Source: a phage. From it: a DNA stretch of 64,000 bases. The position numbers and the translations under genes were made by a program. How positions within the stretch are numbered: position 1 is the first letter of the stretch; each line of letters starts with the position of its first letter. A model generated the notes under the pieces. It made no database searches. It saw only the letters and a list, made by a program, of their open reading frames with translations, and was not told the origin of the DNA. This document shows positions 45,199-61,190 of the stretch, in pieces. Location of the stretch: the NCBI GenBank assembly GCA_018175075.1, contig GCA_018175075.1_4100.1; one strand, 5' to 3'.

Positions 45199-45498
45199 AT
45201 GAAAATTGCAATCATCGCCCTGGCTTTATCTGTTTCCTCTTTCGCTGTTAATGCGTCGTTAGATGTAAGTAGTGAAAAATTCATTCAGTGCACTGTAGCG
45301 ATGACCAATGAAAGTACTGGCGAGATTGTTTTAAAGGATTTAGAGATCCAGCCAGAAGCATTTAAAAACGGGCCGTTCCATGAAGAAGACGAAAAAGGTA
45401 GCACGACAATTTATTACGATGCAAGTACTAAACGCGGTTCGGTCACTGTTATGGATACTGAGAAAGTAACGCATTCCGGCGTTATTAATTGCCGTTGA
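45199..45498 (+). CDS. secreted protein (signal peptide), 99 aa
   Basis: AAGGA RBS; signal peptide ending VNA/S. Confidence 0.55.
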   Translation: MKIAIIALALSVSSFAVNASLDVSSEKFIQCTVAMTNESTGEIVLKDLEIQPEAFKNGPFHEEDEKGSTTIYYDASTKRGSVTVMDTEKVTHSGVINCR

Positions 45499-46986: not shown

Positions 46987-47047
46987 TTGCAAAGTAAATC
47001 GAATAAAGTATAATACATTACATCAAGGGGAGAAAATGGTTCTCCCC
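46987..47047 (+). promoter_or_regulatory. class-I early promoter plus leader hairpin
   Basis: TTGCAA, 16 nt, TATAAT, then GGGGAGAAAATGGTTCTCCCC. Confidence 0.6.
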
Positions 47048-47064
47048 ACTACAAGGAAACTAAA

Positions 47065-47208
47065 ATGAAAACTTGTCAATGTGGTCAGAAATCTATTACT
47101 GGTTTAAAGCGGGGCGTTGCTCTTTGCCAGTACCATTATAATTTACAAGTATGGGGTAAAGAATGGGCCGACCAGGTGGAAGCAGCAAAGAAAGCAAAAA
47201 GTAAGTAA
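47065..47208 (+). CDS. small Cys-containing protein, 47 aa
   Basis: ATG with AAGGAAA RBS after leader hairpin; CQCG...CQYH; below track size cutoff. Confidence 0.45.
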   Translation: MKTCQCGQKSITGLKRGVALCQYHYNLQVWGKEWADQVEAAKKAKSK

Positions 47209-47227
47209 AAATATTATCACAGTACTA

Positions 47228-47256
47228 TTGACATAGTTTGATAGTACTGGCATAAT
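47228..47256 (+). promoter_or_regulatory. class-II promoter
   Basis: TTGACA, 17 nt, CATAAT within repeated AGTACTATTGACATAGTTTGATAGTACTGGCATAAT module. Confidence 0.55.
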
Positions 47257-47287
47257 AGATTTTATCAAAACAACTGAGGAAAATAAA

Positions 47288-47500
47288 ATGGCTATCATCA
47301 CTAAAATCAAAGTTAACAAGACTATCGTTAAACTGGCAGAAGTGAAAGAAGGTTATAAAGTATCTTGGTGCGGTATGTATCGGACGTTCGCAGATATAGA
47401 TGATGCAATCAATTACTACACTGACACGGTTAAAAACTTTGTTCGTGCTGATGTGGTTATGGCAGTGGCAACATATAAAGCAGCGAAAGAAAGTAAGTAA
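47288..47500 (+). CDS. hypothetical protein, 70 aa (paralog of 50419 gene)
   Basis: GAGGAAA RBS; MAII..K N-terminus. Confidence 0.55.
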   Translation: MAIITKIKVNKTIVKLAEVKEGYKVSWCGMYRTFADIDDAINYYTDTVKNFVRADVVMAVATYKAAKESK

Positions 47501-47519
47501 AAATATTATCACAGTACTA

Positions 47520-47548
47520 TTGACATAGTTTGATAGTACTGGCATAAT
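47520..47548 (+). promoter_or_regulatory. class-II promoter (duplicate module)
   Basis: TTGACA, 17 nt, CATAAT. Confidence 0.55.
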
Positions 47549-47589
47549 AGATTTTATCAAGACAACATATTAATTTAAGGAATACAAAA

Positions 47590-47913
47590 ATGGCTAAAAC
47601 TATCATTAACACCGTTTCCCTGGCTGCAATCCGTGCAATCAATGTTGACGGTAAACGTTGGACTGATTCATATGGCAATACTTATCATTCTTGTCATGTA
47701 AGCGTTGAACTGGATAACGGTTTGAATGATCTGGCGGTTGAATCATTTACTTATGGCTATGAAGATGCATATCAACAAACGGCGTTATCTCTCTTAAAGG
47801 AATCAGTAGACGGGCTTAATACTGATGAAACCTCCCTTACTCGTTTGTGTAATGATTTGTCTATCCCGTTGCATTGTACTGTACAGAATGTTAAACGCAA
47901 AAAAGATCTTTAA
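47590..47913 (+). CDS. hypothetical protein, 107 aa (paralog of 54412 gene)
   Basis: AAGGAA RBS; shares RWTDSYGNTYHSC...FTYGY...NDVKRKKD. Confidence 0.6.
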   Translation: MAKTIINTVSLAAIRAINVDGKRWTDSYGNTYHSCHVSVELDNGLNDLAVESFTYGYEDAYQQTALSLLKESVDGLNTDETSLTRLCNDLSIPLHCTVQNVKRKKDL

Positions 47914-47993
47914 TTAGCTTTACTTTATGCAGATACTTTGATATAGTGTCTGCATAGGGGAAAGAAATTAAATTAACTTAAGAGGATCGTATA

Positions 47994-48263
47994 ATGAAAA
48001 ATATCAGTACTTTAATCGACGCAGGTACACATGTTCGGCGGTCTATGGTTGCAACCAGTACTACAAAACAAGTAGCGAGCGGTTATCTTGTATTTGTGCA
48101 CGATGGTAAACTCCTGGAACGTTCAATCAATTTTGATGTTAAAAACAATTGCCGTTTTATTATCTTTAAGCGTGAACAATATAAAATCGATTTGCCAGCA
48201 AAGCCCATTAGCGGGGCGTACAACGTGCAATCATTGTTTGAGCGTCAACCTTACACCTATTAA
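47994..48263 (+). CDS. hypothetical protein, 89 aa
   Basis: ATG with AAGAGGA RBS. Confidence 0.5.
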   Translation: MKNISTLIDAGTHVRRSMVATSTTKQVASGYLVFVHDGKLLERSINFDVKNNCRFIIFKREQYKIDLPAKPISGAYNVQSLFERQPYTY

Positions 48264-48314
48264 TCAAAACATCGTTAGCGGTCGTTTTAGGCCGCTTATA
48301 TTGGGGATTATACC

Positions 48315-48587
48315 ATGAACGTTAATCAAGTACTGAATGAGATCGAAAGCATCATTAAACCGATGAAGCGTACTGATGCTATGTTAACACCGGAAGAATG
48401 CCGCCTTTATGAGCGTTACAGCGTCGAACAAGTCCAGGCAATGGCTATGGCTACCCCAGCCGTTAAACCGCCTGAGAATGCGTTACAGGACGTTACAGGG
48501 GATTATATCATCAATCCAGTACTAGGGAAGATGGCTGCAATCACCGAAGATCAACAAGACTACTTAAGCCAGTACTTAAAAGGTTAA
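48315..48587 (+). CDS. hypothetical protein, 90 aa
   Basis: ATG with GGGGA RBS. Confidence 0.5.
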   Translation: MNVNQVLNEIESIIKPMKRTDAMLTPEECRLYERYSVEQVQAMAMATPAVKPPENALQDVTGDYIINPVLGKMAAITEDQQDYLSQYLKG

Positions 48588-48592
48588 TTAAT

Positions 48593-48802
48593 ATGCTTAC
48601 TGTACAGGATAAGATCGACATCTTAAAGGTTAATATGTATGTGATTGATGCAGTACCTGGTAAAGTATTTGCATACGATGACACCACTGTAAGCGATTTC
48701 TACTATAGCCAGGCCGTGGGGGATCTTTCTGTACAGTCGGTTATTGAAAACGTAGTTAATGCAGCGTATGAGCATTTACTTTCAAATAGTACTTGCAATT
48801 AG
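48593..48802 (+). CDS. hypothetical protein, 69 aa
   Basis: ATG with AAAGG RBS. Confidence 0.5.
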   Translation: MLTVQDKIDILKVNMYVIDAVPGKVFAYDDTTVSDFYYSQAVGDLSVQSVIENVVNAAYEHLLSNSTCN

Positions 48803-48852
48803 TTTTTAAACGCGTATAATGTTTTACATGAAGGGGAGAAATGATTCTCCCC
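48793..48852 (+). promoter_or_regulatory. class-I early promoter plus leader hairpin
   Basis: TTGCAA, 16 nt, TATAAT, then GGGGAGAAATGATTCTCCCC. Confidence 0.6.
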
Positions 48853-48871
48853 ACTAATTAAGGAATATGAA

Positions 48872-49018
48872 ATGAAAGCATCAAAAAAGAGTACTAACAA
48901 GAAAGCACGTTCAACCTTAGATGGGGTATTCCCTTTACGTTTCGTTGATGAAGTGGTTTCCTACCCGCCTGGCCTTACTCCTGAGATGGTAGAAAGTTTG
49001 CGTAAATCTAAAAAATAG
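48872..49018 (+). CDS. small basic protein, 48 aa
   Basis: ATG with AAGGAA RBS after leader hairpin; below track size cutoff. Confidence 0.45.
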   Translation: MKASKKSTNKKARSTLDGVFPLRFVDEVVSYPPGLTPEMVESLRKSKK

Positions 49019-49021
49019 TAC

Positions 49022-49081
49022 TTGCAATTAGTTTTTAGTACTGTATAATGTTTTACATGAAGGGGAGAAATGATTCTCCCC
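49022..49081 (+). promoter_or_regulatory. class-I early promoter plus leader hairpin
   Basis: TTGCAA, 16 nt, TATAAT, then GGGGAGAAATGATTCTCCCC. Confidence 0.6.
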
Positions 49082-49099
49082 AATAACAGGAGAAACAAA

Positions 49100-49252
49100 A
49101 TGAAACAATACAACGCTCGGTTTGATGTTACTATCGGTAACGGCAAAGGTCAATTCTCTTTCAGTACTCGCCGCAGTTATACAGAAAACTTCCTGCGTAA
49201 TTGTGCACTGACCGCCGCACAAATTAAACATTACTTTCAGGCTAAAAAATGA
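49100..49252 (+). CDS. hypothetical small protein, 50 aa
   Basis: ATG with AGGAGAAA RBS; track ORF 49070 starts inside hairpin loop. Confidence 0.5.
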   Translation: MKQYNARFDVTIGNGKGQFSFSTRRSYTENFLRNCALTAAQIKHYFQAKK

Positions 49253-49338
49253 AATCATTAGCTTATTACAGTTCGGCCCTGGTCGGTGCATTGATCGCGG
49301 CATTGTTAGTAACCTATCTATTCTTTATGGTGATTTAA
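49249..49338 (+). CDS. small membrane peptide, 29 aa
   Basis: ATGA overlap with upstream stop; hydrophobic. Confidence 0.3.
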   Translation: MKSLAYYSSALVGALIAALLVTYLFFMVI

Positions 49339-49473
49339 ATGAATCCTAACGGTATAATTTACAGTACTCCTAAAACGAAAGCAGACAAGGTAAACGCTAA
49401 AAAAGCGAAAGTAAAGGAGTACATCAAGCAAGGCATGACGCGAAAGGCCGCAGTACTTAAAGCTAAAAAATAA
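49339..49473 (+). CDS. small basic protein, 44 aa
   Basis: TAAATG coupling; Lys-rich. Confidence 0.35.
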   Translation: MNPNGIIYSTPKTKADKVNAKKAKVKEYIKQGMTRKAAVLKAKK

Positions 49474-49484
49474 ATGAAAAAAGT

Positions 49485-49507
49485 GGTTGACTTCGGTCAG
49501 CCATTTT
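49485..49507 (+). terminator. rho-independent terminator
   Basis: GGTTGAC-TTCG-GTCAGCC hairpin then ATTTTG. Confidence 0.65.
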
Positions 49508-49539
49508 GCTATTATATATTCATTGAGAGATAGCTCACT

Positions 49540-49567
49540 AGCCCACAGGGTGCGGAAGTGTATCTAT
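49540..49567 (+). repeat. AGCCCACAGGGTGC element, forward copy
   Basis: AGCCCACAGGGTGCGGAAGTGTATCTAT between terminator and promoter. Confidence 0.45.
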
Positions 49568-49608
49568 TATATAAGTATTGAGTACTGAAAACTATTTTTA
49601 AAAAGTAC

Positions 49609-49668
49609 TTGCAAACTATCTCAATAGGCGTATAATGTTTTACATCGAAAGGGGAAACGGTTTCCCCT
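49609..49668 (+). promoter_or_regulatory. class-I early promoter plus leader hairpin
   Basis: TTGCAA, 16 nt, TATAAT, then GGGGAAACGGTTTCCCC. Confidence 0.6.
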
Positions 49669-49687
49669 GGTAATAAGGAAACAAATC

Positions 49688-50029
49688 ATGACTATTGCAA
49701 TTGCTCAATCTAACTTTGAAAATGAAATCATCGCTCAGACACTGCGTTTAAGTGATGGTCGGGCCGAAATTAATTACGGTTTCAATTCAGGCGGTTGTGA
49801 AAAATATCAGTACTTTGTAACGGCTGATGGCGGTGTCCTGGGTATCAATACAGTTATTGTAAACATACAGAAAATTAATTTCAATGATCCAGACGATAGC
49901 CAGTTTTACATCACAGGCGTAGACGTGAACTATGAGGATGACTCACTAACTGATGATCACACTGGCGAGCGGTTAGAAAGTGCATACGGTGAAGATGATT
50001 ATCAGTCCGGTCCAGAAGATTTCGAATAA
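49688..50029 (+). CDS. hypothetical acidic protein, 113 aa
   Basis: ATG with AAGGAAA RBS. Confidence 0.55.
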   Translation: MTIAIAQSNFENEIIAQTLRLSDGRAEINYGFNSGGCEKYQYFVTADGGVLGINTVIVNIQKINFNDPDDSQFYITGVDVNYEDDSLTDDHTGERLESAYGEDDYQSGPEDFE

Positions 50030-50042
50030 TATAAAAAATAGT

Positions 50043-50102
50043 TTGACAATAGATTATAGTACTGTATAATAGTTTACATCAAGGGGAGAAATGATTCTCC
50101 CC
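50043..50102 (+). promoter_or_regulatory. early promoter plus leader hairpin
   Basis: TTGACA, 16 nt, TATAAT, then GGGGAGAAATGATTCTCCCC. Confidence 0.6.
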
Positions 50103-50122
50103 ACTAACAGAGAGAAAACAAA

Positions 50123-50335
50123 ATGGCTAATATCTGCACTGTACTGAAAAATGCAAAACAAGTTTTATTTTCTGATCACGATCATTTAAACAAGGATATT
50201 ACTGGCGTTCGGAATATCAAAGATGTAAAAAGTGTTATGGGTATCTATTGCAATATGAAACGTGTTGGAACGTTCGGCGACAAAGTACTATACCAGGCAG
50301 GGGATTACAATTTTACACTGACTATCATTAACTAA
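50123..50335 (+). CDS. hypothetical protein, 70 aa
   Basis: ATG with AGAGAG RBS. Confidence 0.55.
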   Translation: MANICTVLKNAKQVLFSDHDHLNKDITGVRNIKDVKSVMGIYCNMKRVGTFGDKVLYQAGDYNFTLTIIN

Positions 50336-50354
50336 AAATATTATCACAGTACTA

Positions 50355-50383
50355 TTGACATAGTTTGATAGTACTGACATAAT
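50355..50383 (+). promoter_or_regulatory. class-II promoter (third copy of module)
   Basis: TTGACA, 17 nt, CATAAT. Confidence 0.5.
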
Positions 50384-50418
50384 AACTTTTATCAACTACA
50401 CTACTAAGGAATTAAAAA

Positions 50419-50598
50419 ATGGCTATCATCGCAAAAACTGAAATCGTTGGTCTGGATTCTATCATCATGACGTTTGAAGATCAAAAAGGTATGTATGTAG
50501 TTTCATATGGTGATTATGTTCGGGAGTATGAAACGGTAGACGAAGCCTTTGAAAGTTATATTCGCCAGGTGAATAAAGCATACGACGACTACCGCTAA
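50419..50598 (+). CDS. hypothetical protein, 59 aa (paralog of 47288 gene)
   Basis: AAGGAA RBS; MAIIAK N-terminus; below track size cutoff. Confidence 0.5.
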   Translation: MAIIAKTEIVGLDSIIMTFEDQKGMYVVSYGDYVREYETVDEAFESYIRQVNKAYDDYR

Positions 50599-50616
50599 AA
50601 TATATTACCAGTACTA

Positions 50617-50644
50617 TTGACAACGTTTGATAGTACTGTATAAT
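50617..50644 (+). promoter_or_regulatory. class-II promoter variant
   Basis: TTGACA, 16 nt, TATAAT. Confidence 0.5.
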
Positions 50645-50688
50645 AAGTTTTATAAACAGTAGTTAACTTAACCTAAGAGAGAAATAAA

Positions 50689-50832
50689 ATGATCGCACTG
50701 GATTCATTCATCGACGCAGTACTGGCAAAAACTGGCGAGGATCTGACCGCAGAACAATACGCAATGATCGAGCAATGCCAGCAAGACGGTAAATCGGTGA
50801 AAGATACTGTTAAGATTATCCGCAAGATGTAA
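50689..50832 (+). CDS. hypothetical small protein, 47 aa
   Basis: ATG with AAGAGAG RBS; followed by terminator. Confidence 0.45.
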   Translation: MIALDSFIDAVLAKTGEDLTAEQYAMIEQCQQDGKSVKDTVKIIRKM

Positions 50833-50838
50833 TATTAT

Positions 50839-50866
50839 AGCCCACTGGTTAACGCTGGTGGGCTTT
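50839..50866 (+). terminator. terminator-like hairpin
   Basis: AGCCCAC...GTGGGCT hairpin then TTTAATT. Confidence 0.5.
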
Positions 50867-50937
50867 AATTCATTACCCTATACAATGCCAGTACTAAACC
50901 GTTTATCTCGTTAGAATGCATTACAGGACGTTTGACA

Positions 50938-51135
50938 ATGATTAGCATGAAATCAGTACAAAAACAAATAGAAACATTATCAAAAATTAAACGTAAACAG
51001 TACTCGTTAGAATATACAATCAATGGTAACTATCATCTAATGAAAGAAAATAATTTTATAGTCATTGATGAATCATTGCAAATCATTAGTATAGTACTGA
51101 AAGCATTAATTAATGATAGAAAAAAATTAAAATAA
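50938..51135 (+). CDS. hypothetical protein, about 65 aa (AT-rich)
   Basis: ORF; start ambiguous (track start 50932 is TTG). Confidence 0.35.
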   Translation: MISMKSVQKQIETLSKIKRKQYSLEYTINGNYHLMKENNFIVIDESLQIISIVLKALINDRKKLK

Positions 51136-51139
51136 TCTA

Positions 51140-51168
51140 TTGACAATATCCTCCAGTACTGGCATAAT
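51140..51168 (+). promoter_or_regulatory. sigma70-like promoter
   Basis: TTGACA, 17 nt, CATAAT. Confidence 0.5.
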
Positions 51169-51228
51169 ACTTACATCAAGACGAGAACGTCACTAACCCA
51201 TAGGGTGCACAAATGTAACTATATAACA

Positions 51229-51305
51229 TCGATCAATAAATGATCAAAAAAGTACTGGATCAATTTAGCATAAGGCGTATAATTCTGATCAATTCTTGAT
51301 CAAAG
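51229..51305. repeat. cluster of five TGATCAA (GATC) sites
   Basis: GATC at about 51231, 51242, 51258, 51287, 51298 in a non-coding leader. Confidence 0.5.
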
Positions 51306-51464
51306 GCAATATACGCAGTTGAATTTATATAGACAGTACAAAGGCGTTACTATCCGTGGTAATGCTGGTGGATATGTAGTATCATGTGGTTTGAATAAGA
51401 TTAGCACTAGTAGTATTATTGTAGCATTACAGTACTATAGTATTTTTATAATGAGGTTAAAATA

Positions 51465-51722
51465 ATGGCAGTAGGATACGCGAAAGACGGGGCCGAACAA
51501 GACGAGATTAACGCAGTGATTCAGGCCGCCGTTAACCACGCTAGAAAGCAAATTAACGCACAAAGAGAATCACTAGTACATTGCCTCGACTGCGGCGATA
51601 AAATCCCTGAGAATCGACGCCAGGCCGTTATAGGGTGCATGTATTGTATTACTTGCCAGGCGGATCATGATAGTACTTTTAAAAGAGATCCGCGTAATTG
51701 TTGGCATAGATCTATGAGATAA
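51465..51722 (+). CDS. TraR/DksA-family C4 zinc-finger protein, 85 aa
   Basis: C-x2-C-x17-C-x2-C (CLDCGDKIPENRR...CMYCITC) with RKQINAQR upstream, typical of TraR/DksA. Confidence 0.7.
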   Translation: MAVGYAKDGAEQDEINAVIQAAVNHARKQINAQRESLVHCLDCGDKIPENRRQAVIGCMYCITCQADHDSTFKRDPRNCWHRSMR

Positions 51723-51729
51723 AAAGTAA

Positions 51730-51757
51730 TTGACAGTACTGAAAGATAGTGTATAAT
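51730..51757 (+). promoter_or_regulatory. sigma70-like promoter
   Basis: TTGACA, 16 nt, TATAAT, GTTTTATATC. Confidence 0.55.
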
Positions 51758-51786
51758 GTTTTATATCTTAAATGAGGATAGAAATC

Positions 51787-52143
51787 ATGGGAATACAACA
51801 TATCACGCGTACTACTGACAATGGCGAGATCACTGGTTATCAGGTACAGGGCAAAGTAGCACAATTGCAGTACTGGTTTGTTAAACGTGGAATCATTGCA
51901 CCGGATCTTGATTATGACCGTGTTGCTTTCATTGATTCTCTTTATGTTGATCCTGATAGTCGGGGCAATGGTGAAGGTAACGAATTAATGAATGCCTTTA
52001 TCGATGCCGCCGATGATTCAGATTGTATCATCTTAGAATGCGATACGGGAGAAGATAACGCCTTTAATCTTAAAGAATGGTACGAAGGTTTCGGATTCGA
52101 GGTATTGATAGATAGTGAATATCCTATCATGATTTTATCATAG
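51787..52143 (+). CDS. putative GNAT-family acetyltransferase-like protein, 118 aa
   Basis: GAGGA RBS; SRGNGEGNELMNAFIDAA and WYEGFGFE resemble GNAT motifs. Confidence 0.45.
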   Translation: MGIQHITRTTDNGEITGYQVQGKVAQLQYWFVKRGIIAPDLDYDRVAFIDSLYVDPDSRGNGEGNELMNAFIDAADDSDCIILECDTGEDNAFNLKEWYEGFGFEVLIDSEYPIMILS

Positions 52144-52146
52144 TAC

Positions 52147-52203
52147 TTGCATTTAGTTTTCAGTACTGTTATAGTACTTACATCAAGGGGAAACATCTTC
52201 CCC
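52147..52203 (+). promoter_or_regulatory. class-I early promoter plus leader hairpin
   Basis: TTGCAT, 17 nt, TATAGT, then GGGGAAACATCTTCCCC. Confidence 0.55.
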
Positions 52204-52221
52204 TACTAAGAGGAAATGAAA

Positions 52222-52410
52222 ATGGAAAACTTATCAAGTATTTTAGTACAAGATGATTTCGGTAATCCTGGAAGTGCTATCATAGTTCGGGGCAATAAAG
52301 CAACGTTTGTTATTGCTGGTGGACCCGTACAGCGTAGCATTAAAAATAATGCTGTTACCATTAATAATGTACGCTATCGCTTAGATAAAGAATTAATTCA
52401 TAAACTGTAA
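52222..52410 (+). CDS. hypothetical protein, 62 aa
   Basis: ATG with AAGAGGAAA RBS (alternative start 52216). Confidence 0.5.
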   Translation: MENLSSILVQDDFGNPGSAIIVRGNKATFVIAGGPVQRSIKNNAVTINNVRYRLDKELIHKL

Positions 52411-52437
52411 TATTAATTTAATAGAGGATAACAATAA

Positions 52438-52761
52438 ATGTACATTCATACTACTATCACAAAGGAAGTCCGTTGCCAGTTCGAAAGTATTCCGGGCGTA
52501 TGTTTCATCACTGGTACGTTTTCCCCTGGTGATCGTGATAATCCAGTACTGTTACAATTACGCCATCCATCATGGGATAAAGCATTTGATCTACCGTTGA
52601 ATGAATTCGCAACTACTGCTGAAAAGTACATTAAAAATATTCGCGAGAATGATCGACTATTCATTAATGCTTTTAGTGATTCCGCGTTAAGCGAGATCCA
52701 CGGTGTATTGGTTGCAATCATGGAATCAATGGAGAAAACTAAATTCAAACAAGGTGAATAA
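52438..52761 (+). CDS. hypothetical protein, 107 aa
   Basis: ATG with AGAGGA RBS. Confidence 0.55.
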   Translation: MYIHTTITKEVRCQFESIPGVCFITGTFSPGDRDNPVLLQLRHPSWDKAFDLPLNEFATTAEKYIKNIRENDRLFINAFSDSALSEIHGVLVAIMESMEKTKFKQGE

Positions 52762-52767
52762 AAACTA

Positions 52768-52827
52768 TTGACAAGATAATCTAGTACTGTATAATAAGTT
52801 ACATGAAGGGGAGAAATGATTCTCCCC
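52768..52827 (+). promoter_or_regulatory. early promoter plus leader hairpin
   Basis: TTGACA, 16 nt, TATAAT, then GGGGAGAAATGATTCTCCCC. Confidence 0.6.
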
Positions 52828-52844
52828 ACTGAGAGGAAAGAAAA

Positions 52845-53057
52845 ATGCAAGGTCAACTAATCGTTCGTAAATGGTCTGATACTAACGCTAAACCGTGGGA
52901 TGTACAATACATCGGCCCCAATGGTGAATCCAGATATCAACCAGGTGTAACGCATAGTACTGAGCAATTCGCCGCCGCTCATCGTGAACGTCTGTTACAA
53001 TCAATGCAGCAAGGTTCCGGTGAAAAATTCATTCAGGATCATTGGCTGAAAGATTAA
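52845..53057 (+). CDS. hypothetical protein, 70 aa
   Basis: ATG with GAGAGGAAA RBS. Confidence 0.55.
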   Translation: MQGQLIVRKWSDTNAKPWDVQYIGPNGESRYQPGVTHSTEQFAAAHRERLLQSMQQGSGEKFIQDHWLKD

Positions 53058-53064
53058 AAAGTAC

Positions 53065-53121
53065 TTGCACAGTACTGAATAAAGTGTATAATGTTTTATA
53101 TCGGAAGGGGAATAGTTCCCC
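53065..53121 (+). promoter_or_regulatory. class-I early promoter plus leader hairpin
   Basis: TTGCAC, 16 nt, TATAAT, then GGGGAATAGTTCCCC. Confidence 0.6.
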
Positions 53122-53143
53122 TCCCAACAAAGAGGAAAGTATA

Positions 53144-53317
53144 ATGATCCAAGTAGAATTATCAGTACTGAAAGATCTGTTTTATCGGTTAGGTACTAAT
53201 GGCGAGTATCCTAAAAGTGATACCGCAAAACTTTTTGTATCACTCGACTTATGGCAACGCGAACAATTAGTAATGTCCTGGCGTAAAGGTAAAGCAGATC
53301 GCGAGGTGAAAGCATGA
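53144..53317 (+). CDS. hypothetical protein, 57 aa
   Basis: ATG with AGAGGAAA RBS; track ORF 53042 extends into the promoter. Confidence 0.5.
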   Translation: MIQVELSVLKDLFYRLGTNGEYPKSDTAKLFVSLDLWQREQLVMSWRKGKADREVKA

Positions 53318-53463
53318 AAGAATTCTTATTCGAAGTAGTGTTTCAAGGTGTCGGTAGTAACCAACTGATTCGATCAAGTGGTTACAATGTCAACCAGGCA
53401 TGGAATAACATTAAACAAATGTACCCGAACGCTATCACCTATCGCAACCCGAAAGAAGTTTAA
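53314..53463 (+). CDS. hypothetical small protein, 49 aa
   Basis: ATGA overlap with upstream stop; followed by terminator. Confidence 0.4.
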   Translation: MKEFLFEVVFQGVGSNQLIRSSGYNVNQAWNNIKQMYPNAITYRNPKEV

Positions 53464-53477
53464 AAATAATTGAAAAA

Positions 53478-53502
53478 GGGATTGACTCCGGTCAGTCCCT
53501 TT
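53478..53502 (+). terminator. rho-independent terminator
   Basis: GGGATTGACTCCGGTCAGTCCC hairpin then TTT. Confidence 0.65.
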
Positions 53503-53529
53503 GCTATTATATACGCATAGAAACAAATC

Positions 53530-53557
53530 AGCCCACCGGGTGCATAAATGTATCTAT
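53530..53557 (+). repeat. AGCCCACCGGGTGC element, forward copy
   Basis: AGCCCACCGGGTGCATAAATGTATCTAT, followed by GCTGGTGG. Confidence 0.45.
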
Positions 53558-53600
53558 TGTTTGCTGGTGGCTAGTACTGAAAACTATTTTAAAAAAGTAC

Positions 53601-60340: not shown

Positions 60341-60531
60341 TGCGTAAAGGGATCTAGTACTGATTCAGAAAAAAGTCAAGGCGTTTTTAAAATTATGCGT
60401 TAAAAAAATGCATAGGTAATCCCTTGACTTTTTTGAAATAAAAGGGATTGGACTATGGCAAAATGCGTAGGGGGCTAAAGGGCGGGTAACCTTAGCGACT
60501 TCGATAAAGGGGTATTACGAATAAAATGTTA

Positions 60532-60559
60532 TTGACTTTTTATATGAATCGTATAAAAT
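60532..60559 (+). promoter_or_regulatory. possible promoter for tandem family 2 array
   Basis: TTGACT, 16 nt, TAAAAT; preceded by inverted repeat GAAAAAAGTCAAGG / CCTTGACTTTTTT. Confidence 0.35.
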
Positions 60560-60589
60560 ATGATTGATATTAATTTTAAGGGAGTCCCT

Positions 60590-60787
60590 ATGCGTATTTT
60601 AACTAAAGAACAGCACCACGAAAGACTTATCAATAACATGGCTATGATAATGTATAAGTCCCATGACCGTGGTATTGCCTATAAGCGTGAATTAATTATG
60701 GCACTATTCATTGGAACTAACTTTCAGGAAAGGTATGTCAACGATTGGATTTGGTATTTAATTGAAGATATAACGAGTAAACTATGA
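60590..60787 (+). CDS. tandem family 2 small protein
   Basis: AAGGGAG RBS; IGTNFQERY motif; first member. Confidence 0.55.
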   Translation: MRILTKEQHHERLINNMAMIMYKSHDRGIAYKRELIMALFIGTNFQERYVNDWIWYLIEDITSKL

Positions 60788-60984
60788 AAATGCGTATTTT
60801 AAATAAAGAAGAATATCAATCACTGTTACGTAAAAACTACGTAAAGATTTACAACACAGACACACATGTAGAACGAATGGAGTTATACCTTTTGATTACA
60901 TTGGGAACAAACTATCAGGGTAGATGGGTGTGGCAATATATGGATACATTGAAAAATAAAATATTGTCCACGAGGAAACAATGA
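60784..60984 (+). CDS. tandem family 2 small protein
   Basis: ATGA coupling; LGTNYQGRW motif. Confidence 0.55.
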   Translation: MKMRILNKEEYQSLLRKNYVKIYNTDTHVERMELYLLITLGTNYQGRWVWQYMDTLKNKILSTRKQ

Positions 60985-61190
60985 AAACTATAACACGAAC
61001 CCAATCATACGGTCTTATCTTGAAATACATGGACTTAATGGTGGATATCAGCAAAGACCTGCCTAAAACTGAAATTGAAGTTGCAAGAGCAGAGATCCGC
61101 ATGTTGGCTGTACTGAACACAAACCATCAGGAAGAGTATGTTCAAGATTGGATTCGATTTTTAATAGAAGATATTAAGAGTAAACTATGA
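60981..61190 (+). CDS. tandem family 2 small protein
   Basis: ATGA coupling; family motif. Confidence 0.55.
   Translation: MKTITRTQSYGLILKYMDLMVDISKDLPKTEIEVARAEIRMLAVLNTNHQEEYVQDWIRFLIEDIKSKL

Follow-up and report, generated by a model that had tools for sequence, protein, structure and literature searches.

The pre-early genes of phage T5 lie in the long terminal repeat (the first-step-transfer DNA); many are small, they are read from strong host-type promoters, they are the first to be expressed, and their products are directed at the host. Very small early proteins have also been characterized from other phages, among them T7 Gp2 and Gp0.4, lambda Kil, and T4 Stp (∼26-64 amino acids, aa). 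In T4-type phages, strong sigma-70-like promoters with AT-rich DNA upstream and a polyG/polyC stem-loop in variable positions are found before ORFans (PMC2839356; PMC4122927). Recombination between these elements, called promoter early stem-loops (PeSLs), shuffles modules in the plastic regions of the genome (PMC2839356; PMC4122927). For the Rak2-like phage CBB, the retrieved passages of its description report RpoD-like promoters with UP elements before short hypothetical early genes, some of them on the terminal repeat (PMC5259590). Here we analyze six open reading frames (ORFs) of less than 50 codons, m1 to m6, which lie between positions 47065 and 53463 of a 64,000-nucleotide stretch of phage DNA (GenBank assembly GCA_018175075.1, contig GCA_018175075.1_4100.1). 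This whole stretch is referred to below as the window. An earlier inspection of the letters alone (the original prediction) had singled the six out as micro-genes with promoters of their own or with translational coupling to a neighbor.

All six ORFs were found at the predicted positions and with the predicted lengths, each running from an ATG to a stop codon on the + strand: m1 (47065-47208, 47 aa), m2 (48872-49018, 48 aa), m3 (49249-49338, 29 aa), m4 (49339-49473, 44 aa), m5 (50689-50832, 47 aa), and m6 (53314-53463, 49 aa). We conclude, with a probability of roughly 85%, that they are bona fide protein-coding genes forming the short end of an array of small accessory genes in the terminal repeat. 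The core of the original prediction, namely that the six ORFs are genuine small genes, either read from a promoter of their own or coupled in translation to a neighbor, is therefore supported. Escherichia phages Ecwhy_1, fEgEco12, JNE01, and CRJP21 match the stretch from 47000 to 53600 with 94-97% nucleotide identity and 96-100% coverage, and ∼80 records match it in total, among them G17, phAPEC6, 121Q, and PBECO4. Judged by these matches, the source phage is a Rak2-like jumbo coliphage myovirus of the Asteriusvirus (PBECO4/121Q) type, with a genome of ∼350 kb. The fEgEco12 counterpart of the stretch lies at 3.3-13.6 kb of its record, and the direct terminal repeat of that phage (20,993 bp) has been confirmed experimentally (PMC13070987). 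Records that hold both repeats contain two copies of each micro-gene. When the flanks were mapped to vB_Ec-M-J (21,525-bp repeat) and E9.1, the boundaries fell at ∼39.4 and ∼60.5 kb of the window, and this interval would thus be the equivalent of a direct terminal repeat of ∼21 kb.

ORFs this short are abundant by chance (136 of at least 25 aa were counted in all frames of 10.5 kb), so the six genes stand out by their conservation and not by their existence. Conservation of the reading frames in related phages had been suggested as a way to check the original prediction, and the outcome was clearly positive, with no frame-breaking changes in up to nine relatives. Across 5-9 related loci per gene, the alignments were ungapped, all starts were ATG, and there were zero internal stops. 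Variable sites at first, second, and third codon positions numbered 3/2/15 for m1, 2/3/9 for m2, 3/1/8 for m3, 6/2/19 for m4, 2/1/10 for m5, and 1/1/13 for m6. The pooled counts were 17/10/74, placing 74 of 101 changes at the third position (binomial P = 2.8e-16), and P was below 0.02 for every gene taken singly. Crude omega values in frame were 0.14, 0.22, 0.20, 0.15-0.17, 0.05, and 0.04 for m1 to m6, respectively; in the two shifted frames of the same alignments omega was 2.6 and 1.6. The 18 other genes in 46.7-53.5 kb had omega values of 0.05-0.45. The micro-genes are under protein-level purifying selection in their own frame and behave like their larger neighbors.

These results bear directly on the possibility that the six are chance open frames in AT-rich regulatory DNA, conserved only because promoters, leaders, or small RNAs constrain the DNA or RNA. 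Frames of 25-60 aa are indeed common by chance, and the region is packed with conserved non-coding signals. Codon usage also leaves room for this explanation, as the score separates real from spurious short ORFs only weakly; log-odds trained on the long ORFs of the window were positive in the annotated frame for all six and the best of the six frames for five. On the other hand, the third-position excess and the omega values of 0.04-0.22 are seen in the annotated frame only and are indistinguishable from those of longer neighbors, protein homologues persist at 34-67% identity where similarity at the DNA level is gone, and m5 and m6 have confidently predicted folds. Chance frames are barely credible in the face of this evidence.

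Each ORF also has the start signals that had been described for it, either a proper ribosome-binding site or a coupling junction. Strong Shine-Dalgarno (SD) sequences precede m1 (AAGGAAA, 47053-47059), m2 (AAGGAA), m5 (AAGAGAG), and m6 (GAGGTGA). Their pairing with the 3' end of 16S rRNA amounts to -5.3 to -7.2 kcal/mol, which is in the top 4-16% among all 452 ATGs in 40-60 kb. Pairing is weak for m3 and m4 (-2.5 and -2.8 kcal/mol), so these two probably depend on translational coupling: the ATG of m3 overlaps the stop of the preceding gene, g50 (ATGA), and the ATG of m4 abuts the stop of m3 (TAAATG). An ATGA overlap likewise joins m6 to the stop of g57. Both of these partners are small first cistrons on the + strand, g50 (49100-49252, 50 aa, phrog_7119) with an omega of 0.13 and g57 (53144-53317, 57 aa, phrog_10572) with an omega of 0.28.

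The claim that all six are bracketed by promoters and terminators held for the promoters, and for the terminators only after m4, m5, and m6. The promoters were called as sequence matches to the consensus, and all features given here are on the + strand. Upstream of m1 is a sigma-70-type promoter (46987-47014; TTGCAA, 16-nt spacer, TATAAT; 10/12 match) with an A-rich AAAAAGTAC stretch before it, and 13 nt past the -10 hexamer a leader hairpin without a T-run is formed by GGGGAGAA/TTCTCCCC (47027-47047; -13.8 kcal/mol, z = -2.9). The sigma-70-type promoter of m2 (48793-48820, 10/12 match) is likewise followed by a hairpin, GGGGAGAA-atga-TTCTCCCC (48833-48852; -13.9 kcal/mol). A single promoter (49022-49049) serves the three cistrons of the g50-m3-m4 operon, and an ATG in the loop of its leader hairpin (49062-49081) gives rise to a spurious 60-aa ORF call at 49070. 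The m5 promoter (50617-50644; TTGACA, 16-nt spacer, TATAAT) is a perfect 12/12 consensus followed by an unstructured leader, and the g57-m6 operon has its promoter at 53065-53092 and a leader hairpin at 53106-53122. Past m4 lies a hairpin with a T-run (49480-49515; -15.9 kcal/mol, z = -4.6) in which a promoter is embedded (-35 TTGACT 49487-49492; -10 TATTAT 49510-49515). The element after m5 is an 11-bp GC-rich stem with the short tail TTTAATT (50839-50871; -19.1 kcal/mol, z = -5.1), and m6 is followed by a hairpin and T-run (53475-53510; -19.5 kcal/mol, z = -5.9), again with an embedded promoter (-35 53482-53487; -10 53505-53510). These three hairpins look like intrinsic (Rho-independent) terminators by prediction, and terminators predicted with ARNold are annotated at the matching sites in phage G17. 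No terminator follows m1, m2, or m3; m1 and m2 run directly into the next promoter.

The coupled ORFs, m3 especially and perhaps m4, could in principle be mere spacers or leaders through which ribosomes pass from g50, with peptides that do nothing. Their SD pairing is near the median of all ATGs, they are joined by ATGA and TAAATG junctions, m3 has just 29 codons, and the ORF at the m3 position in Klebsiella phage RaK2 has no detectable sequence similarity to m3. Nevertheless, m3 is 90-100% identical at the protein level across nine fetched relatives, and third positions make up 8 of its 12 variable sites. The RaK2 ORF (JQ513383; L013 12796-12912), which is unannotated, encodes 38 hydrophobic residues, is TAATG-coupled to the g50 homologue (ORF338), and overlaps the next start with its stop. 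It keeps the hydrophobic transmembrane character of m3, a maximal 19-residue hydropathy of 2.69 being reached in both, which argues for selection on the product. In m4, conservation of the C-terminal half likewise extends down to a homologue with 34% identity. A spacer role for m3 and m4 is thus quite unlikely. What is known of m3 comes from the nine fetched loci and RaK2, because tblastn with joined g50 and m3 matched the g50 part only, probably owing to the low-complexity filter.

Adjacent ORFs that overlap by 1-4 nt in different frames might also be read as the remains of a recent frameshift, in which case g57 and m6, or g50, m3, and m4, would be pseudogene fragments of longer split genes. 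However, all nine relatives examined share these junctions and lengths, every piece has a low omega, and the m6 homologues of the Klebsiella RaK2-type lineage and of metagenomes (48-52 aa) stand as proteins on their own. Homologues of g50 occur in RaK2 and in rV5-like and Pectobacterium phages; in the latter two groups they end at the same point as g50 without an m3- or m4-like extension, and a promoter takes the place of an m3-like ORF. Fragmentation of longer genes has very little to recommend it on these grounds.

The six proteins differ in how far their families extend. Full-length matches in PHROG were obtained for m4 (phrog_29913, 3e-29), m5 (phrog_34103, 8e-38), and m6 (phrog_37188, 3e-40); m1 and m2 had no PHROG match, and m3 had only a weak one to phrog_32088 (5e-3). 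Homologues of m6 with 51-53% identity are present in Klebsiella phages RaK2, K64-1, and Muenster. A HMMER profile of m6 run against 1.84 billion representatives added two further short homologues only, plus four long proteins that were matched in several short stretches and are taken to be spurious; as far as these searches reach, the family is restricted to Rak2-like phages and offers no functional lead. Its AlphaFold model is a beta-beta-alpha-beta fold with a confidence (pLDDT, predicted local distance difference test) of 93.9. A more specific reading of m6 would make it an early inhibitor that binds a host enzyme, in the way of T7 Gp2 (RNA polymerase) or a small anti-CRISPR protein. The weak match to the Gp2 fold is more readily put down to a generic small alpha/beta fold, and we consider this role for m6 improbable.

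Homologues of m5 with 67% identity are found in Salmonella Munch-type phages and in Klebsiella phage fENko-Kae01, where the gene also lies in the terminal repeat. The AlphaFold model of m5 is a compact three-helix bundle (pLDDT 89) for which structural comparison returned no specific neighbor. A helix-turn-helix DNA-binding domain was considered for m5 and is not supported, as neither a specific superposition on such a domain nor a profile match to a helix-turn-helix family was obtained. Paralogy with the 50-aa 121Q gp278-type protein (27% identity, E = 0.007) was too weak to use. For m4, a Lys-rich protein, a full-length homologue with 34% identity (E = 2e-6) was found in a 366-kb IMG/VR jumbo contig (L011). 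The m1 protein carries a CxCG...LCQxHYN motif; its homologues have 84-89% identity in ∼145-kb coliphages (only Justusliebigvirus ESCO8 was inspected) and 63% in an Aeromonas Casjensviridae phage. The residues of its CxCG-x14-CxxH pattern (C4, C6, C21, and H24) are kept in Asteriusvirus, ESCO8, and the Aeromonas phage, and m1 is possibly a zinc-knuckle protein. The m2 protein, which is Lys-rich at both ends, is restricted to 25 Escherichia jumbo phages, and m3 is a predicted hydrophobic single-span micropeptide. Word-indexed homologue searches returned close relatives only, and an IMG/VR scan with the central 113-aa protein found two loci only.

The view that these genes fall below usual annotation thresholds was for the most part not borne out, as most relatives annotate them and three are PHROG families. 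All six are annotated as coding sequences in fEgEco12 (g015, g020, g022, g023, g027, and g036), five or six of them in JNE01, G17, phAPEC6, and SD-2_S15, and those that are present in 121Q and PBECO4; the relatives label them hypothetical proteins. The finding is in this sense already known from GenBank records and PHROGs, correct but ordinary. Annotation is nevertheless inconsistent between records, with the same gene called in one genome and skipped in another. For example, in the tblastn tables m4 is unannotated in 7 of the 30 listed records; m6 is skipped in RaK2, K64-1 (AB897757), and RCIP0023, m2 in phAPEC6 and CMSTMSU, and m1 in Sharanji and EC.P1. The 48-aa m6 homologue of RaK2 (L013 17040-17186) and the 38-aa ORF described above both lie in gaps of the deposited annotation. 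The name "tail fiber protein" given to m5 in fEgEco12 (g027) and in UniRef is probably spurious. The same holds for "phosphoribosylpyrophosphate synthetase", the name given in several ∼145-kb coliphages to the homologue (L016 374-589) of a neighboring 70-aa gene (50123-50335).

Many leader hairpins (e.g. at 47036-47068, 48842-48862, and 49070-49099) have an ATG in the loop with a GGAG in the stem before it. Gene callers sometimes start at this ATG, and 57-aa versions of m1 are found in databases as a result (P0012, P0014). The loop ATG was also considered as the start of a conserved upstream ORF, which was rejected as improbable: many cassettes lack this ATG, and where present it stands in no constant frame with respect to the gene.

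The six genes belong to a much larger array of repeated cassettes, which the original prediction had overlooked, as it had the 5' hairpins and the location in the terminal repeat. Between 39.3 and 60.5 kb, 42 matches to the promoter pattern TTGxxx, 16-17 nt, YATWRT were found on the + strand, as opposed to 1.4 in mononucleotide shuffles and 6 on the - strand. Most copies have the A-rich stretch upstream, and for 28 of the 42 a hairpin of -9 kcal/mol or lower lies in the 45 nt downstream. About 24 of these 28 hairpins are of the GGGGA(G)AA-loop-TT(C)TCCCC type and begin 11-15 nt past the -10 hexamer; 20 distinct stem sequences occur, all of them paired, with z = -2.5 to -3.9 against shuffles. 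The SD and the ATG of a small ORF come after the leader hairpin, and the genes of the array have a median length of ∼70 aa. A second type of cassette, TTGACA/CATAAT (47228, 47520, and 50355), has no hairpin, and in a third, found after m4 and m6, the -35 box of a further promoter lies within the terminator hairpin. Scanning the whole window for Rfam families and tRNAs gave no match, which indicates that the conserved non-coding elements are not known RNA families.

In several respects these cassettes resemble PeSLs. A near-consensus sigma-70 promoter with an AT-rich upstream stretch (10-12/12 at m1, m2, m5, and both operons) is accompanied by a G-tract/C-tract stem-loop, absent at the m5 promoter and the TTGACA/CATAAT type. 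At the 3' end come the SD and ATG of a small uncharacterized gene, dozens of copies occur in a variable region, and after m4 and m6 the stem-loop overlaps the -35 box. The two differ in that the present genome is that of a Rak2-like jumbo phage and not of a T4-type phage, and in that the array fills a long direct terminal repeat, while PeSLs occupy internal hyperplastic regions. Moreover, the commonest hairpin here lies past the -10 hexamer, probably within the transcript, and lacks a T-run, which makes a 5'-leader structure more likely than a terminator. We found no paper in the searchable literature describing PeSL-type cassettes in the Rak2-like/Asteriusvirus clade. CBB belongs to the same clade, and the kind of region is the same, likewise read as early host-takeover genes in the passages retrieved (PMC5259590). 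These report 18 such promoters genome-wide, as compared with ∼40 in 21 kb here, and they describe neither hairpins nor modular exchange (PMC5259590).

In a comparison of the window with nine relatives, genes had been inserted, deleted, or exchanged as modules, and the breaks fell inside the cassettes, which is a further likeness to PeSLs. The slot between two near-identical cassettes that holds m2 in the window holds an unrelated ∼80-aa ORF in PBECO4 and consists of two tandem cassettes only in SD-2_S15; 121Q has no such slot. Direct repeats of one cassette enclose gene 47288-47500, which fEgEco12, JNE01, G17, phAPEC6, and TH47 lack. A GNAT gene is missing from G17, PBECO4, and SD-2_S15 through a deletion that reaches from one -35 region to another, and in PBECO4, which lacks m1, the m1 cassette drives the next gene instead. 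Modules are also shared with unrelated coliphage lineages. The m1 gene and the 70-aa gene (50123-50335) occur in ∼145-kb phages (Justusliebigvirus ESCO8 and Phapecoctavirus-type records), with a different gene order in ESCO8, where m1 directly follows the 70-aa gene; g50 and a 59-aa gene (50419-50598) occur in rV5-like Vequintavirinae.

With this sharing in mind (m1 and neighbors with the ESCO8-type phages, other neighbors with Vequintavirinae), a bolder reading can be put forward. The Rak2-like terminal repeat would be a PeSL-like exchange platform that swaps micro-gene modules, even across unrelated coliphage families, and at least one micro-protein would found a new class of early host-takeover or anti-defense effectors. 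Candidates for such a class may be m6 (beta-beta-alpha-beta), m1 (CxCG...CxxH), and m3 (the g50-coupled membrane micropeptide). We regard this combined proposal as tentative, and its being wrong as the likelier outcome. At the level of organization, the likeness of the terminal repeat in this clade to the PeSL-driven regions of T4-type phages provides a concrete recombination model for the turnover of hundreds of ORFans in jumbo phages.

The arrangement as a whole can be explained as follows. The array consists of repeated cassettes, in each of which an A-rich stretch leads to a near-consensus host sigma-70 promoter, in most cases to a G-rich/C-rich hairpin, and then to an SD and a small ORF. 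Within it, m1, m2, and m5 are single-gene modules with their own promoters, m3 and m4 the second and third cistrons of g50-m3-m4, and m6 the second of g57-m6, these last three probably being translated by coupling; m4, m5, and m6 close their predicted transcription units at putative intrinsic terminators. Host RNA polymerase may transcribe the array right after DNA entry, the 5' hairpins may stabilize or attenuate its transcripts, and the products could be dispensable early proteins with fast turnover that act on host or competitor targets: m3 as a membrane micropeptide, m1 as a possible zinc-knuckle, and m5 and m6 as compact folded binding modules. An early, host-directed accessory role is the most likely one overall. 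We infer it from the type of promoter, the position in the terminal repeat, the turnover of the genes, and the precedent of T4 ORFans, T5 pre-early genes, T7 Gp2 and Gp0.4, and lambda Kil. The likeness to T5 lies in the many small genes that are placed after strong host-type promoters in a long direct terminal repeat; the two regions have no sequence relationship, and the early timing, known for T5, is an expectation here. We know of no two-step DNA transfer in Asteriusvirus. None of the six proteins has sequence homology to T7 Gp2, T7 Gp0.4, lambda Kil, or T4 Stp.

Several observations weigh against the conclusion that the six are genes of this kind. None of the six proteins had a Pfam or NCBIfam match that passed the cut-offs, and sequence-profile searches of the PDB with m5 and m1 gave chance-level matches (E > 0.4). 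In one m1 variant (P0014) residue 6 is Tyr and not Cys, and the case for zinc binding is weaker for it. Apart from the one Aeromonas m1, m1 and m2 are without homologues below ∼80% identity, so their selection signal comes from close relatives, and codon statistics cannot tell the frames apart for a peptide as short and hydrophobic as m3. Hairpins that lie downstream of the promoter and lack a T-run may not terminate transcription as PeSL stem-loops reportedly do. A search of the literature found no transcriptome, ribosome-profiling, or small-proteome data for any Asteriusvirus, and the retrieved passages on the phAPEC6 virion proteome do not list the six products.

The six families of 29-49 aa, with solid evidence that they are real and confident predicted folds for two of them, are cheap to synthesize and to screen for host targets or anti-defense activity. 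The finding by itself adds little, since it is common for phages to have small early genes under the control of strong promoters; of greater interest in this region are the cassette array and the sequence signatures described next.

One of these signatures is the palindrome AGTACT, of which 283 copies were found in the 64 kb as compared with 21.6 expected from base composition (13-fold). The hexamer is densest at 36000-60000 and is 21-fold enriched in 39-60 kb, and it sits in promoters as well as in coding sequences, where it occurs in all three frames. No other 6-bp palindrome is enriched more than 2.3-fold. The longer CAGTACTG has 64 copies in the whole window (0.7 expected). Enrichment of AGTACT by 16-21-fold was also found in fEgEco12, 121Q, PBECO4, the IMG/VR jumbo contig, Salmonella phage Munch, and Klebsiella phage RaK2; two ∼1.5-kb fragments of rV5-like and Pectobacterium phages had zero copies (∼0.4 expected). 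This distribution suggests that AGTACT may be a signal at the DNA level, e.g. a site of protein binding, modification, or recombination. A literature search found no paper describing the enrichment. At 60.1-60.5 kb the density falls sharply: counts of 12-18 per 2 kb give way to 2 and next to 0, and this drop coincides with the end of the terminal repeat of vB_Ec-M-J. The 3.5 kb beyond (60500-64000) contain a single ORF of at least 90 aa; relatives annotate 17-20 "hypothetical proteins" there.

Two further ORFs of the region are of note. The one at 51319-51465 is a seventh micro-ORF (48 aa, TTG start) that ends at the ATG of a DksA-like gene. It is annotated in 121Q (gp293), fEgEco12 (g029), and PBECO4 and missing from G17 and phAPEC6, and it looks coding (variable sites 1/3/9, omega 0.20), with an internal stop in one relative. 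The other, at 45199-45498, encodes a 99-aa protein with a signal-peptide-like N-terminus. Its fEgEco12 counterpart (g10) is named "protein spackle", after the superinfection-exclusion protein of T4, and its PHROG match is to a family of unknown function only.

The second signature is the 12-mer CCCAYMGGGTGC, of which 9 copies were found, all within the terminal-repeat equivalent, as compared with 0.01 expected. Six are on the + strand (42222, 49542, 51197, 53532, 56805, and 59064) and three on the - strand (40128, 42279, and 44700). All Rak2-like relatives, including Munch and RaK2, have 3-9 copies per fetched locus. Five of the + strand copies lie ∼30 nt downstream of a TTGACT/TTGACA promoter (-10 TATTAT or CATAAT) in or beside a terminator hairpin, with no ORF after them. 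The element has no match in Rfam and could be a short non-coding transcript or a protein-binding site. For the whole element after m4, blastn also returned matches in jumbo phages that are more distantly related, namely GAP32, CBB, and Erwinia pEa_SNUABM_47 and _50.

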